A stretch of 64,000 nucleotides of DNA from a virus (IMGVR_UViG_3300017650_000001:39621-103620); one strand, 5' to 3'. Counted from the first letter of the stretch, positions 6,107 through 44,673 are shown. Numbers and translations are program-made. Notes: a model not told the origin generated them from the sequence alone.

Positions 6107-6598
6107 TCAACTAAAATCGCGCACATACCGTGTAGCAACTTCAGGTATTGCTAAGTTATCTACGCGAATGTCGTATTCTTTCGCGATACGCAGAGCTTGT
6201 CCCGTCCCACCTCCCATCAATCCTGCTTTGGTCCAACAGATAATCAACATAGTAGGAGTCTTGAGATCGTGTCCCAAAACTTGGTGGCAATTGCGCGCAT
6301 GGAAAGCGCGGGCTGTTTCATTACAATTATGCCATGCAGGATGAAATTGTGCAGCCATCTTGAAAGCAGCTTCGGTCGGAAGCAGTTTTGACTTGGAACC
6401 ATTAAATCCCAGCCAGGGGAGATAAATCTCCTTCTGGTCACCAGCTCCTTTTTCAAAGGCGGTATCAGCGCCCTTAGCTCCTCCAGAACGCAAAGTATAA
6501 CCAGAAATAGCCATCTTCTTAGCCGTTCTGGTCATAAGGCGCATGACTGCTTCAGGAGTTTCTCGACTACCTATTCCTGTATAAATGAAGTCAACCAT
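6107..6598 (-). CDS. SLOG/DprA-Smf-like nucleotide-binding protein
   Basis: YTGIGSRETP, LRSGGAKGAD, ARN, GGTGQALRIA motifs. Confidence 0.75.
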   Translation of the reverse strand: MVDFIYTGIGSRETPEAVMRLMTRTAKKMAISGYTLRSGGAKGADTAFEKGAGDQKEIYLPWLGFNGSKSKLLPTEAAFKMAAQFHPAWHNCNETARAFHARNCHQVLGHDLKTPTMLIICWTKAGLMGGGTGQALRIAKEYDIRVDNLAIPEVATRYVRDFS

Positions 6599-29245: not shown

Positions 29246-29552
29246 CACGATTCCAAAACTCTTTGAATGGCGTGACGGTAAATGTTACCAGTTCAAAACA
29301 CTAAAAGAAGATGAATTCAGCATTCAATCTGATGACGGCTCATTTATCGTCTACGAGTGCTTGTCTATGGGACCTGATGGAAAAGAAATCAGAGAGGTCC
29401 TTGGAACTGCTTATGCCGACGGATTGTGCGAATTGATGGCTACAATGTTCGCTTGTGGATACTTCCGTGGAAAGTCTGAAGGCTACGAAAACGCCCAAAA
29501 AGATATTCGTAAAGCGCTAGGGGTTTCAGATGGACGATCAGCAAAAAACTAA
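29235..29552 (+). CDS. Hypothetical protein
   Basis: Operon packing. Confidence 0.6.
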   Translation: MGRNTIPKLFEWRDGKCYQFKTLKEDEFSIQSDDGSFIVYECLSMGPDGKEIREVLGTAYADGLCELMATMFACGYFRGKSEGYENAQKDIRKALGVSDGRSAKN

Positions 29553-37038: not shown

Positions 37039-38619
37039 TTAGCTCTTCGCGAACTCGGCCATAATTGCCGGAACCGATGTATCGAAACCAGAAACGTCGA
37101 GCATTCCCGGATCGTTCGGATCTGCAATACTGAAGTTCGTTGCAGCCATACCAACAACGATAAGCTTTGCATTGATTCCCGTAGCCTTGCGGTAGTCTAC
37201 AAGAGCACGAGACGGATGTACACGACCGGCGTAAGTCTCATTGTCGGTCATGACAACGAAGACGTCAACGTTCAAGCCCTGTTCACGAGCGTAGACCATA
37301 GGCAACGAACAATCGGTTGATCCGAAGTTGTTGTCATGAGCCTTCTTCGTGGCTGCCACAAGAGAATCACTTGTATTGATCTTGAGATCACGGAATTGAT
37401 TTGCGAAACCCATGACATGGGTACTCGGTTCCGTATTCAAAGATACAAGTGACAATGCTGCGGTAGCTTCGCAGTAGCTGACGTTCGAATTCGCCATCGA
37501 TGACGACATTGAACCCGAAACGTCCAAGGCAAACAAGAAACGCTTGCCTGTCGGCTGCACGTTCTTGAACGCCTTGTAGAACGCCTTGTCCAGCGCTGCA
37601 ACGATCGGCTGCGACGGAGTCCAGGAATTCCCACCGCGGAAACCACGGCCGGAATTGTAGGTCTTCAGCGCAACCAAGATGTTGAACGGATGCAAGCGTG
37701 ACTTGCGGATCACGTTCTCGTCGCTCAACCGCTGCACAATCAGCGATTCAGCGTCGCTGAGCGGCTTGATCAGACCGATGCGGGTCATATTGGCAAGATT
37801 CCGCATAAGCGCTGTTAGCCCCATCGTCGGTAGCATCGCAGCCCAGTAATCAGGGTCACTGTTGCACTCGGTCGGCAGAGCTTCCCAAGGCAACTTGTAT
37901 TCCTTGATTAGTGCGGTACGGAGCTTCTTGGTCGTCCGTGGATCCATTGCGTTCATGTGTGCCATGACTTGCGGAGGCAACGATGCTTGCGTATGGTCAA
38001 CACCGCGGACCCACTGATAAAGAGCGCGACGCGCTTCGCTGTTGCCAGCATCCGGATGATGCAGCTGATGCACATTCTTGTGCGACCAGCCATTGCGCTC
38101 ACGATACTTGATCATCTGGAACGCGACGTCGTCCACAGACTTGTCATTGTACCACTTACCGATTGCACGATGCAGAGCACGACCACCCTTCCCGCCGCCC
38201 AAAGCCTTGCGAGCTTCGAGGTACTGAAAGAGGTGAGTTGCAGTACGACAGACAGCCGGCAAAGCCGAATGAGCGTACGAGCGTACCTTGACGTCCTTGT
38301 GCGTGCCGCCGATTGCCAATGCGAAGATGGCTGGATCGTTCTTCGGAGCACGGCCTTCCTGCGAAACCGAAACGATCACATCGATCGTCTTGATTGGATT
38401 CTCGTCGAAACACTCCTGAACACAACGTGCATTTTCGCGCGTCAGGTCAGCAGCCTTCTGGTAATAGGTGTTGGAGTCACTTCCAAGGATCAGGAAGCGG
38501 TTGAGGCGGGACCAGATATCGATCGCATAGACGTAGCCGCCGGCGTTGTTCTTTACCTGATTCTTGGTAAGCGGCTGAGTCTGCGGAACTGGCGTAGAGA
38601 TAAGTGATGCATACTTCAT
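37039..38619 (-). CDS. rsr: Ro60/Rsr TROVE-domain RNA-binding protein
   Basis: QVKNNAGGYV, RLNRFLILGS..TYY, KYRER.GWSH, ALMRNL, SRLHPF, vWA LDVSGSM, GSTDCSLPM, TDNET, DPGMLDVSGFD. Confidence 0.96.
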   Translation of the reverse strand: MKYASLISTPVPQTQPLTKNQVKNNAGGYVYAIDIWSRLNRFLILGSDSNTYYQKAADLTRENARCVQECFDENPIKTIDVIVSVSQEGRAPKNDPAIFALAIGGTHKDVKVRSYAHSALPAVCRTATHLFQYLEARKALGGGKGGRALHRAIGKWYNDKSVDDVAFQMIKYRERNGWSHKNVHQLHHPDAGNSEARRALYQWVRGVDHTQASLPPQVMAHMNAMDPRTTKKLRTALIKEYKLPWEALPTECNSDPDYWAAMLPTMGLTALMRNLANMTRIGLIKPLSDAESLIVQRLSDENVIRKSRLHPFNILVALKTYNSGRGFRGGNSWTPSQPIVAALDKAFYKAFKNVQPTGKRFLFALDVSGSMSSSMANSNVSYCEATAALSLVSLNTEPSTHVMGFANQFRDLKINTSDSLVAATKKAHDNNFGSTDCSLPMVYAREQGLNVDVFVVMTDNETYAGRVHPSRALVDYRKATGINAKLIVVGMAATNFSIADPNDPGMLDVSGFDTSVPAIMAEFAKS

Positions 38620-38827: not shown

Positions 38828-38991
38828 AGGAGTGTCTTACTAGATTGAGCATGAAATTGAAAATTCGCGTTTAGAGTTGGATTCGAACCAACGTCTCTAG
38901 TCCAAGACTAGCGCACTAACCACTATGCTACCCGTTCAGTTTTGGCGAACGATAACGAAATTTCAGCAACTCAATCTAATAAGACACTCCT
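38828..38991 (-). ncRNA. Y RNA-like gene Y3 (non-permuted D-anticodon-T module)
   Basis: About 22-bp terminal stem AGGAGTGTCTTA.TAGATTGAG, TTCGTTATC, then D arm, CTAGT-CTTGG-ACTAG hairpin, T arm GTTGG-TTCGAAT-CCAAC. Confidence 0.75.
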
Positions 38992-39017: not shown

Positions 39018-39158
39018 TTGCACGAGCATAAAGGGCGAAGATCGATGTTTGACGTGCTACCATTACACTACAGGCCCGTAAATGTTGGACCCGATGGGAT
39101 TCGAACCCATTCCGCCAGCTTTCAATGCTGATAACCGAACTTCAGTCAACTCGTACAA
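39018..39158 (-). ncRNA. YrlA-like Y RNA Y4
   Basis: TTGTACGAG/CTCGTGCAA stem, GAAGTTCGGTTATC, T arm ATGGG-TTCGAAT-CCCAT, acceptor CGGGTCC-AACATTTAC-GGGCCTG, D arm GTGT-AATGGT-AGCAC. Confidence 0.85.
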
Positions 39159-39262: not shown

Positions 39263-39466
39263 CTAGTGTGCTCCCAAAATCTTTTTGAGATTCGTGAGCG
39301 CATGAACGGCGCAGCGATCGTTAACAAAAGTCGCGAGATGCTTGGTCAACTTCTTGACCTTGTTCTTCTCGCGACGATTGGTATTCTTGTATCGCGAACA
39401 GAAGTCAGCATTGCGACCGTGTTTGCGATTCTTCTTCGAACTCTTGGCCTTGTGCAGACCAGACAT
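39263..39466 (-). CDS. Small basic protein
   Basis: GAGG RBS, Lys/Arg-rich. Confidence 0.6.
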   Translation of the reverse strand: MSGLHKAKSSKKNRKHGRNADFCSRYKNTNRREKNKVKKLTKHLATFVNDRCAVHALTNLKKILGAH

Positions 39467-40277: not shown

Positions 40278-40282
40278 GTAAA

Positions 40283-40357
40283 TGGTGCTCCGTGACGGTT
40301 TCGATCCGTCTTCCCCGATTTGAAGGACCGGGATCCTAGCCACTAGACGAACGGAGC
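40283..40357 (-). tRNA. trnE: tRNA-Glu(TTC) with C33
   Basis: Glu-type D arm GTCTAGTGGCTAGGA; CCGGT-CCTTCAA-ATCGG. Confidence 0.85.
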
Positions 40358-40362
40358 GTAAA

Positions 40363-40436
40363 TGGTGCGGGCTACGAGAATCGAACTCGTGACTCCTCGT
40401 TGGAAGCGAGGGATTTTACCATTAAACTAAGCACGC
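40363..40436 (-). tRNA. trnG: tRNA-Gly(TCC)
   Basis: CCTCG-CTTCCAA-CGAGG; CCA. Confidence 0.9.
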
Positions 40437-40971: not shown

Positions 40972-41053
40972 TGGCACCCCGAGCAGGATTCGAACCCGCG
41001 TTTTCAGCTCCTCTACAGATAACTGCTTAGAAGGCAGAACTGGCTACCGGGGC
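40972..41053 (-). tRNA. trnR: tRNA-Arg(TCT), non-canonical
   Basis: GCCCCGG-TAGC-CAG..CTGC-CTTCTAA-GCAG..CTG-TAGAGGA-GC..T arm-G-CCA. Confidence 0.75.
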
Positions 41054-41218: not shown

Positions 41219-41293
41219 TGGTCAGGGTAGGGAGTTCCGCCTTCCCACCTCTAGTTCCCGAAACTAGTGCTCTTCTACACGAGCTTTACCCTG
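41219..41293 (-). tRNA. trnP: tRNA-Pro(CGG), aberrant T loop
   Basis: CTAGT-TTCGGGA-ACTAG; C1-G72, A73; CCA. Confidence 0.75.
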
Positions 41294-41301
41294 TTAAATT
41301 C

Positions 41302-41399
41302 TGGTCTTGATAGAGGACTCGACCACGCGCTACCCACCGCAGACTAACACGTTATCCATGCGTCCGCGCCAAAGCCTTGTCCGTCGGCCTCTATCAAGA
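41302..41399 (-). ncRNA. CCA-terminated tRNA-like RNA without a recognisable anticodon arm
   Basis: 12-bp terminal helix TCTTGATAGAGG/CCTCTATCAAGA followed by CCA. Confidence 0.5.
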
Positions 41400-41400
41400 A

Positions 41401-41485
41401 TGGTACCCACGAGGCGAGTCGAACGCCTATTTGCAGCTTCCAGTTACGGTTCCACTGATTCGTAGTCAGGGCCGGCTACGTGGGC
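41401..41485 (-). tRNA. trnR: tRNA-Arg(ACG), non-canonical
   Basis: GCCCACG-TAGC-CGG-CCCTGA-CTACGAA-TCAGTGG-AA-CCG-TAACTGGAA-GC..T arm-A-CCA. Confidence 0.78.
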
Positions 41486-41492
41486 AAAATTC

Positions 41493-41628
41493 TTTGTACG
41501 AGCATAAGGGTCGAAGATCGGTATGGGACCGGAGTTCTACCATTGAACTATCAACGACGCAGCCGTTGAGTTGGATTCGAACCAACATATCCAGTTTGGG
41601 GTAACCAAACTTCTACAACTCGTACAAA
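41493..41628 (-). ncRNA. YrlA-like Y RNA Y6 embedded in the tRNA array
   Basis: TTTGTACGAG/CTCGTACAAA stem as in Y4, GAAGTTTGGTTACC, T arm GTTGG-TTCGAAT-CCAAC, closed acceptor TCAACGGC-TGC-GTCGTTGA, D arm GTTC-AATGGTA-GAAC. Confidence 0.85.
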
Positions 41629-42648: not shown

Positions 42649-42729
42649 TGGCGACCACGGCAGGATTCGAACCCGCATTTACATCCGGTTACCTTGATCT
42701 CCGTTCGAAGCGGAGTGGGATACGTGGTC
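42649..42729 (-). tRNA. trnR: tRNA-Arg(TCG), non-canonical
   Basis: GACCACG-TATCCCA-CTCCG-CTTCGAA-CGGAG-ATCAAGG-TAACCGGA-TGTAAAT-T arm-G-CCA. Confidence 0.75.
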
Positions 42730-42910
42730 AAAATAGGTGTCGTCAGATGACTACTCTGACAGAGGTTGTAAGGCTGCCTAGCCAACTCCGACCTCTCCGC
42801 CTTTTATAGTCGTTTCCCTTACTAACGACCAGTTGTACTAGTATTCTGATCGTTTTCATTCGAGGCGCATCTAGCGGGAATCGAACCCTCTAGCGACATA
42901 GTCACATACG

Positions 42911-44592: not shown

Positions 44593-44597
44593 GTAAA

Positions 44598-44673
44598 TGG
44601 TGCTCCTTCCGTGAATCGAACACGGTCAATCGAGGTGTGTAAAACCACTGCCTTCCCATCTGGCGCAAGGAGC
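44598..44673 (-). tRNA. trnV: tRNA-Val(TAC)
   Basis: Loop TTTACAC; CCA. Confidence 0.82.

Follow-up and report, generated by a model that had tools for sequence, protein, structure and literature searches.

YrlA RNAs (Rfam RF02553; Wang et al. 2018, bioRxiv 10.1101/312249; Chen et al. 2014, PMC4201824) are bacterial Y RNAs that are encoded beside rsr, whose two ends form the helix bound by Ro60 and whose T arm lies 5′ of the D arm. The 5′ strand of this end-to-end helix carries a conserved motif, GNCGAAN0-1G (Chen et al. 2014, PMC4201824), and phage examples of the class are already known (bioRxiv 10.1101/312249; PMC4201824). The Salmonella YrlA has a 6-bp acceptor stem closed by a 3-nt loop, with no anticodon loop and no CCA. 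The M. smegmatis YrlA has a 7-bp stem; RNase P cleaves it both in vitro and in vivo, even though the RNA encodes no CA itself, and CA is then added (Chen et al. 2014, PMC4201824). Most YrlAs, according to the published view, have no CCA end and remain closed. The dimeric-tRNA model of Sim and Wolin (2018), as summarised by Wang et al. 2018, derives the T arm from a first tRNA, the D arm from a second and, in that summary, the acceptor-like stem from the spacer between them; a dimeric-tRNA origin is accordingly not a new idea and has been published at least in outline.

The phage RNA described here, which we call Y4, resembles these RNAs in lying beside rsr and in having its T arm 5′ of its D arm, and its two ends form a helix that presumably binds Ro60. 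It differs from the Salmonella RNA in its 7-bp stem, its 9-nt junction-like loop and a separate hairpin resembling an anticodon arm. Outside the Y RNAs, the permuted tRNAs of Cyanidioschyzon and the two-piece tmRNA resemble Y4 in that the 3′ half comes first and the acceptor stem is closed by a loop. Circularly permuted tRNA genes have reportedly been found in Cyanidioschyzon merolae. In permuted tRNAs and two-piece tmRNA the loop is later opened by RNase P or RNase Z, and tmRNA also carries G3-U70. These RNAs mature to a working tRNA or tmRNA, whereas the ends of Y4 instead form a Y-RNA helix.

The DNA analysed, referred to as the window, is a 64-kb stretch that forms the right-hand part of a 103,620-bp phage record with terminal repeats. 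Read 5′ to 3′ on the minus strand, it contains a tRNA array, a 67-aa ORF, five tandem small RNAs and rsr (Table 1). The Y RNA set comprises six small RNAs, the sixth of which, Y6, lies inside the tRNA array directly after tRNA-Glu(CUC). Y4 is the fourth counting away from rsr and lies about 400 nt upstream of the TROVE and vWA_Ro60 ORF on the same strand, so that the rsr adjacency of the YrlA class is found here. The 67-aa ORF between the tRNA array and the Y RNAs (39263-39466, minus) is Lys/Arg-rich, has no Pfam match and is conserved at the same place in the viral contig L010 (5741-5938).

Table 1. Features of the Y4 locus, in window coordinates.
Feature	Position	Strand	Details
tRNA array	45468-39702	minus	24 ARAGORN calls and several Rfam-only tRNAs
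Reference junction tRNA-Glu/tRNA-Gln, ACCATTTAC	40278..40286	minus	also at 40358-40366 and 44593-44601
Y4, whole RNA	39020..39156	minus	closing stem GUACGAG (39156-39150) / CUCGUGC (39026-39020); from sequence and fold
Presumed Ro60/Rsr-binding helix, 5′ strand, UUGACUGAAGUUCGGUUA	39132..39149	minus	motif shared with other Y RNAs; binding presumed
Anticodon-arm-like hairpin, UCAGC-AUUGAAA-GCUGG	39115..39131	minus	5 bp; 7-nt loop with U second and A sixth
Variable-loop-like connector, CGGA	39111..39114	minus	4 nt; homologs mostly 5-nt AGGUC
T arm, AUGGG-UUCGAAU-CCCAU	39094..39110	minus	T-stem pairs covary in 198-199 of the 200 homologs listed
Acceptor 3′ strand, CGGGUCC	39087..39093	minus	tRNA positions 66-72; U39089 = U70
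Junction loop, AACAUUUAC	39078..39086	minus	A73, then ACA (for CCA), then leader-like UUUAC; predicted RNase P site C39078/G39077
Acceptor 5′ strand, GGGCCUG	39071..39077	minus	tRNA positions 1-7; G39075 = G3, pairs with U70
D arm, GUGU-AAUGGUA-GCAC	39054..39068	minus	UA (39070-39069) before; G26 (39053) after
Presumed Ro60-binding helix, 3′ strand	39027..39052	minus	from sequence and fold
rsr (Ro60 ortholog), presumed Y RNA protein partner	37039..38619	minus	526 aa; Pfam TROVE 3.2e-36, vWA_Ro60 5.7e-62

The minimum-free-energy fold of Y4 (RNAfold) gives all four hairpins and the closing stem, with a z-score of only -1.4, so that folding energy alone is no proof of the structure. The RNA fits the interval 39018-39158 from which the analysis started. 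Its T arm precedes its D arm, with an acceptor-like stem-loop between them, and the 7-bp acceptor stem stands beside a 5-bp T stem, A73 and C-1 being unpaired. The anticodon-like hairpin anticipated before the T arm is present. The effector module comprises an entire tRNA body whose parts are permuted, running from positions 27-76 through a spacer to positions 1-26, and the presumed Ro60-binding helix emerges between positions 26 and 27. The closing stems of Y4 and Y6 begin alike (GTACGAGTTG at 39156 and 41625), and the UGAAG...GGUUAUC motif of Y4 is common to Y1, Y5, Y6 and homologs such as L087 and L105 (GGUGAAG...GGUUACUUCG). The Y4 5′ strand, GACUGAAG...GGUUAUC, is close to, although not identical with, the published GNCGAAN0-1G.

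Neither ARAGORN nor the Rfam tRNA model called Y4 as a contiguous cloverleaf. Against the Rfam YrlA model (RF02553) it scored 22.8 bits (E = 0.14) with only the tRNA-like part aligned, below the gathering score of 69, and there was a weak match to tmRNA_permuted. Its homologs gave graded YrlA scores (L010 32.7, L007 34.6, L328 40.5, L129 43.7, L096 66.2 and L091 69.4 bits), which indicates that the low score of Y4 reflects divergence and not another kind of RNA. Y4 is an ordinary phage member of the known YrlA class, and it is very probably a YrlA-type permuted tRNA.

In cultured phages (of Gordonia, Microbacterium, Mycobacterium and Streptomyces) the relatives of the phage Rsr are distant, none exceeding 44% identity; uncultured viral contigs hold closer ones (72% in L010, 66% in L007, 57% in L071 and 51% in L021). 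The same set of small RNAs, a clear Y4 homolog among them, precedes rsr in L007 and L010. A blastn search of the Y-RNA region against 50,697 phage records returned no match. A pattern built from Y4 and its L007 homolog, with the T loop and five acceptor pairs fixed and the loop left free at 3-14 nt, matched 12 viral contigs, and with one T-loop base freed it matched at least 120 genome contigs and at least 119 metagenome contigs. Deduplication left at least 227 unique matches, comprising 200 permuted-only modules, 17 real tandem tRNA junctions and 10 ambiguous cases. By record title, the hosts of the listed modules include Alphaproteobacteria, Actinomycetota, Planctomycetota, Acidobacteriota, Myxococcota and others, as well as phages. 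A TROVE gene was present in the fetched flank of 76 of the 200 listed modules, always on the same strand and at a median distance of 429 nt. This linkage, together with the graded Rfam scores, indicates that the pattern picks out a genuine YrlA subfamily.

Two narrower searches were negative. Around the Ro gene of Mycobacteriophage Breeniome, a simple scanner detected no permuted module at distances up to 4 kb, a result that says little because only modules with a perfect 5-bp T stem and GG in the D loop are recognised. A primer from Chen et al. 2014, searched against 401 genomes of the order of a Nocardia match, did not recover the M. smegmatis YrlA, and M. smegmatis probably lies outside that sample.

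We compared the Y4 loop with the junctions of the phage's own tRNA array. As noted originally, the acceptor stem CGGGUCC/GGGCCUG is closed by AACAUUUAC, one base from ACCAUUUAC, and the junction sequence ACCATTTAC occurs exactly at Glu(UUC)/Gln(UUG) (40278-40286), Gly(UCC)/Glu(UUC) (40358-40366) and Val(UAC)/Val(GAC) (44593-44601), where it spans the discriminator to the base before +1. The variant GCCATTTAC is found at the Gln(CUG)/Cys junction, and among the tRNA leader pentamers of the window TTTAC is the most frequent (4 junctions). Loop and local junction agree in 8 of their 9 bases. Across both strands (128,000 positions), about 11.8 sites would be expected to match with no more than one mismatch, which corresponds to roughly 1e-4 per site; even when three permuted loops and some ten junction variants are taken into account, the probability of a chance match stays below about 1e-2.

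The same register recurs across the family. Within the GGGCC-type acceptor demanded by the pattern, to which these statistics are limited, A73 is the first loop base in 178 of the 200 listed modules (89%), CCA occupies positions 74-76 in 61 (30.5%, against a chance of 1/64), and NCA occupies them in 100, with 50% of the loops starting with ANCA; the commonest four-base starts are ACCA (56), AUCA (22), ACUC (17) and AACA (15). Loop-masked clustering with an 80% identity threshold gave 72 clusters, of which 13 were mostly CCA (binomial ~1e-10) and 62 mostly A73; a 70% threshold was too coarse, giving 11 clusters. Acceptor pair 6:67 is paired in 197 of the 200 listed homologs, with more than five pair types, and positions -1 and 73 can pair in just 60 of the 200, which indicates a 7-bp stem as in tRNA. 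The intact ACCA followed by a U-rich spacer survives in some homologs, including the phage contig L328 (ACCAUUUAU) and L012, L020 and L338. The AACA start of Y4 has a parallel in AACAUCUUAC of the bacterial genome L129, whose Rsr is 44% identical to that of the phage, and its 15 occurrences in the family mark it as a recurrent variant of the conserved ACCA. Modules with other acceptor types agree: among about 49 Rsr-linked phage modules, 6 have CCA at precisely positions 74-76 (p = 1e-4), and CCA is in register with other acceptor sequences in L008, L046, L047 and Rhodococcus phage Trina, whose Y RNA has the loop G-CCA-ACUU and a D arm identical to that of Y4. We found no description of this family rule (ACCA in register, an anticodon-type arm and a tandem tRNA-Ala analog) in the literature examined.

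In many bacterial members the loop reads A-N-CA...UG-G/C (for example ACCAUUGG, AUCACUGG and ACCAUGUGC), an arrangement absent from Y4. Pairing of the loop CA with the UG near the loop 3′ end could form a short extension of the stem and hide the CCA.

The pattern matches also point to a source for the module. All 17 tandem tRNA junctions among them have a tRNA-Ala upstream, and 15 have a second tRNA-Ala downstream (ARAGORN), an outcome partly forced by the G3-U70 contained in the pattern; tandem tRNA-Ala is the sole clear non-YrlA class among the listed matches, beside the 10 ambiguous ones. A tandem tRNA-Ala(CGC)/tRNA-Ala(GGC) shares with Y4 the T loop, C-N-GGUCC, A(CCA) with a short spacer, and GGGCC-N-G-UAG; it differs in having complete tRNAs on both sides and neither a Ro60-binding helix nor an rsr neighbour. 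Living genomes therefore hold exactly the proposed precursor, tandem tRNA-Ala genes, and as both tRNAs of such a pair have the same acceptor stem, the 3′ strand of one can pair at once with the 5′ strand of the next. These observations support a junction origin for the whole family from an old tRNA-Ala pair, most likely tRNA-Ala/tRNA-Ala, and we consider it quite probable that the Y4 loop is a tandem-tRNA junction by descent. Relative to the Sim and Wolin model as summarised by Wang et al. 2018, the stem would come from acceptor strands of both tRNAs, the 3′ strand of the upstream one and the 5′ strand of the downstream one, and the loop from ACCA plus the spacer.

This matters because the source of the tRNA-like half of bacterial Y RNAs has so far been, in the literature examined, a model without sequence evidence. 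In a large YrlA subfamily the discriminator, a spacer resembling a tRNA leader, an anticodon-type arm and, in many members, the CCA are retained in exact tRNA register. The published model can be refined accordingly, with the stem taken from two acceptor strands and not from the spacer, and an evolutionary guess becomes a concrete, datable scenario.

Taken together, the data are best explained by Y4 being a YrlA-class RNA whose loop is an inherited tandem-tRNA junction retained as a processing site, a reading to which we assign a probability of about 0.65. The Y4 design would have been inherited from an old, widespread YrlA subfamily in which the junction was kept as a functional, pre-tRNA-like processing site. 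By the M. smegmatis precedent, RNase P would cut Y4 at C39078/G39077; trimming of the resulting 3′ end and its completion to CCA, as in the M. smegmatis YrlA, would then leave a two-piece tRNA-like Y RNA. Judged by the text of that paper, the M. smegmatis RNA resembles Y4 in its 7-bp acceptor stem and in a loop that opens like a tRNA 3′ end. With A73 in 89% of modules and CCA or NCA in half of them, across phyla, a neutral relic is unlikely, and the family loop most likely serves as a pre-tRNA-like cleavage site. That the loop is still cleaved in this phage we rate at about even odds or slightly below. If the junction is under selection, many YrlAs, including phage ones in tRNA arrays, may be cut and CCA-tailed, in which case different effector proteins are to be sought.

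The strongest competing account, which we nonetheless regard as unlikely, is that Y4 was captured from a junction of this array, that CCA then changed to ACA so that processing was blocked and the module stayed closed, and that Y6 and Y2 are later stages of erosion. The identity of the loop with local ACCATTTAC at 8 of 9 positions favours a local source, but the Y4 halves match the best local tRNAs at 36/51 and 20/29, no closer than the family medians of 35 and 20, and match distant family members at up to 42/51 and 24/29, which argues against capture from the phage's own array. The acceptor stem and the A-N-C-A start are shared across several bacterial phyla, so the module predates this array, and the recurrence of AACA elsewhere in the family makes the Y4 variant unexceptional. 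The proposal that such a module arose as the 3′ half of one tRNA, a spacer and the 5′ half of the next thus holds for the family, on the 200 listed homologs, and fails for this phage's array.

The escape component of that account draws on the lineage nearest to the window. In the window, L007, L010, L276 and L021, A73 and the final UAC are invariant while the loop middle varies (AACAUUUAC, ACUUUAC, ACUUAC, ACCUAC and AUCUAC), indels giving lengths of 6 to 9 nt. None of these five loops has an intact CCA, though the called tRNA genes of the lineage encode CCA in 22/24, 13/15, 16/17 and 25/27 cases (L276 left out); such a picture would be expected if an unused CCA were decaying, and it counts against a site that is still processed, as does the view that most YrlAs remain closed. 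Loss of CCA alone is no block, however, given that the M. smegmatis YrlA is cut without an encoded CA, and it does not in general prevent cleavage. CCA is also said to be an anti-determinant for RNase Z, so that its loss can even open a cleavage route. A CCA mutated to escape processing is in our view less likely than a loop that can still be cleaved.

The suggestion that Y6 (3-nt loop) and Y2 (4-nt loop) are more eroded stages was not borne out in this lineage. Although a closed 3-nt-loop YrlA stands beside an open ACCAUUGG copy in a Sphingomonas genome, as loop loss would predict, the closed stems of Y2 type are conserved and covary in L007 and L010 (window GGUUCC/GGAAUU, L007 CAAAAA/UUUUUG, L010 GAUCU/AGGAUC, with loops of about 4 nt), and the 8-bp stem of Y6 carries a 3-nt loop and lacks G3-U70. 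By sequence comparison, Y2 and Y6 are stable, separate paralogs that predate the divergence of these phages, although further back in time closed YrlA forms may well descend from open ones.

Homolog loops were also compared with the tRNA spacers of their own loci. Their tails relate to the local leaders, and the absence of any such relation, named at the outset as the adverse outcome, was not what we found. Among 18 loci, each with five or more tRNA genes, the final 2-5 bases of the loop fit the 5′ leaders of the local tRNAs better than they fit leaders from elsewhere (permutation p <= 0.0006, with kinship ignored and L009 and L014 being near-duplicates). Arrays rich in leaders ending ...AC before G have loops ending in AC (window, L007, L021, L265 and L141), and arrays rich in ...AU before G have loops ending in AU (L009, L011 and L019). 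CCA loops sit among CCA-encoding tRNA genes 9:2, compared with 15:24 for other loops (Fisher p = 0.016, kinship ignored). As both tests ignore shared ancestry, they are suggestive only.

A local likeness of this kind could also arise if an old Y4 had its UUUAC tail recently copied or homogenised from array spacers by gene conversion, which we consider very unlikely. The frequency of TTTAC among window leaders, its occurrence in the L007 array, where the Y4 homolog ends in UUUAC, and the resemblance of the L010 (CUAC) and L021 (UUAC) tails to some of their own leaders all agree with such patching. The likeness nevertheless stops at 5 nt, the flanking stems differ from those of every local tRNA, and tails of UUUAC or UUUAU type occur in unrelated bacterial members (L091 ACCAAUUAC, L175 ACCAUUUAU and L306). 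The shared processing constraint implied by a retained junction explains the same data.

The hairpin before the T arm was assessed across the family as well. A hairpin with a 7-nt loop (at least 4 bp, 3-7 nt before the T stem) occurs in 77 of 197 homologs, compared with about 22 in shuffles, and the only other enriched loop length is 9. The 7-nt loops read pyrimidine-U-NNN-purine-A/C (Y32 92%, U33 90%, R37 87%), the middle triplet varies freely (UGA in Y4), and the connector that follows is mostly AGGUC, of 5 nt. By its sequence, the combination carries the hallmarks of an anticodon arm and, behind it, a class-I variable loop. A comparable element was labelled the 'V' arm by Chen et al. 2014 (PMC4201824), and the Rfam YrlA consensus treats both the anticodon-like hairpin and the long junction loop as insertions.

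With all four arms, a 7-nt U33/A37 loop, G3-U70 and A73, Y4 might be taken for a split or permuted tRNA gene that matures to a decoding tRNA in the manner of Cyanidioschyzon and is not a Y RNA. This is highly improbable: the triplet varies freely across the family, the Y4 ends form the Y-RNA helix common to Y1, Y5 and Y6, the family RNA sits with rsr in 76 loci, and the phage already encodes a tRNA-Ser(UGA). Furthermore, no splicing-ligation route for permuted tRNAs is known in bacteria (Wang et al. 2018, bioRxiv 10.1101/312249). Lastly, although short A/T-rich motifs are common and one other AACATTTAC lies in a coding region of the window (29278-29286), a chance likeness of the 9-nt loop to a common A/U-rich spacer is effectively refuted by the low per-site expectation and by the A73-then-CCA/NCA register, which holds in 100 of 200 listed homologs and in 13 of 72 loop-blind clusters (p = 1e-10).

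Y4 has the tRNA-Ala identity elements G3-U70 (G39075-U39089) and A73 (A39086); in its primary transcript the acceptor end is a closed loop with ACA where a tRNA would have a free CCA. Scans for G3-C70 and A3-U70 found genuine YrlA relatives (L326 is a near-twin of L013, and L328 has G3-C70), and strict conservation of G3-U70 was accordingly rejected. Since the wobble pair is not strictly kept, it is a hint of ancestry more than a conserved charging function. It is a speculative and rather improbable extension that GGGCC-type YrlAs are matured by RNase P, trimming and the CCA-adding enzyme and are then charged by AlaRS or bound by EF-Tu or another reader of tRNA ends. If so, a two-piece RNA of Y4 type, with an alanine-identity acceptor, a free CCA and an exposed anticodon-like arm, would be held on Ro60, and the Ro60 particle would be linked directly to translation or tRNA surveillance during infection.

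Several further observations concern the neighbouring RNAs. Y6 (41496-41625, minus) starts 5 nt past the CCA of tRNA-Glu(CUC); the spacer, AGUUU, also occurs before tRNA-Ser, and AAUAUUU, similar to it, precedes Y4. This spacing suggests that a single precursor is probably cut into both Y RNAs and tRNAs. Y3 (38829-38990, minus) has a closing helix of about 21 bp around a non-permuted tRNA-like body made up of a D arm, a short hairpin and a T arm; it matches the Rfam tRNA model over positions 6-65 with 41.3 bits, and L010 has a homolog at about 6245-6400.

Within the tRNA array, T-arm-containing elements uncalled by ARAGORN lie at 40975-41050, 42650-42900 and 41290-41470 (minus), with GGTTCGA at 40996, 42673 and 42887, and a long inverted repeat, CUUGAUAGAGG...CCUCUAUCAAG, lies at about 41400-41300. 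These may be unusual tRNAs or further structured RNAs.

Related arrangements were seen in other genomes. The Sphingomonas MAG L096 (7527-7796) has two tandem YrlA copies before rsr with similar acceptor sequences, one closed with a 3-nt loop (74.5 bits) and one of open type with the loop ACCAUUGG (66.2 bits). In the viral contig L016 (2430-2550), a T arm runs almost straight into a GUGUAAUGGUAGCAC D arm, the acceptor stem being absent, and a Y4-type module follows directly downstream, an arrangement that may represent a double tRNA-like RNA. ARAGORN miscalls YrlA halves as tRNA-Gln, tRNA-Asn or tRNA-Leu (L012 12669-12745, L019 2260-2330 and L338 5282-5352), taking the Y-RNA helix strand as a false acceptor strand, which constitutes an annotation trap in phage tRNA arrays.
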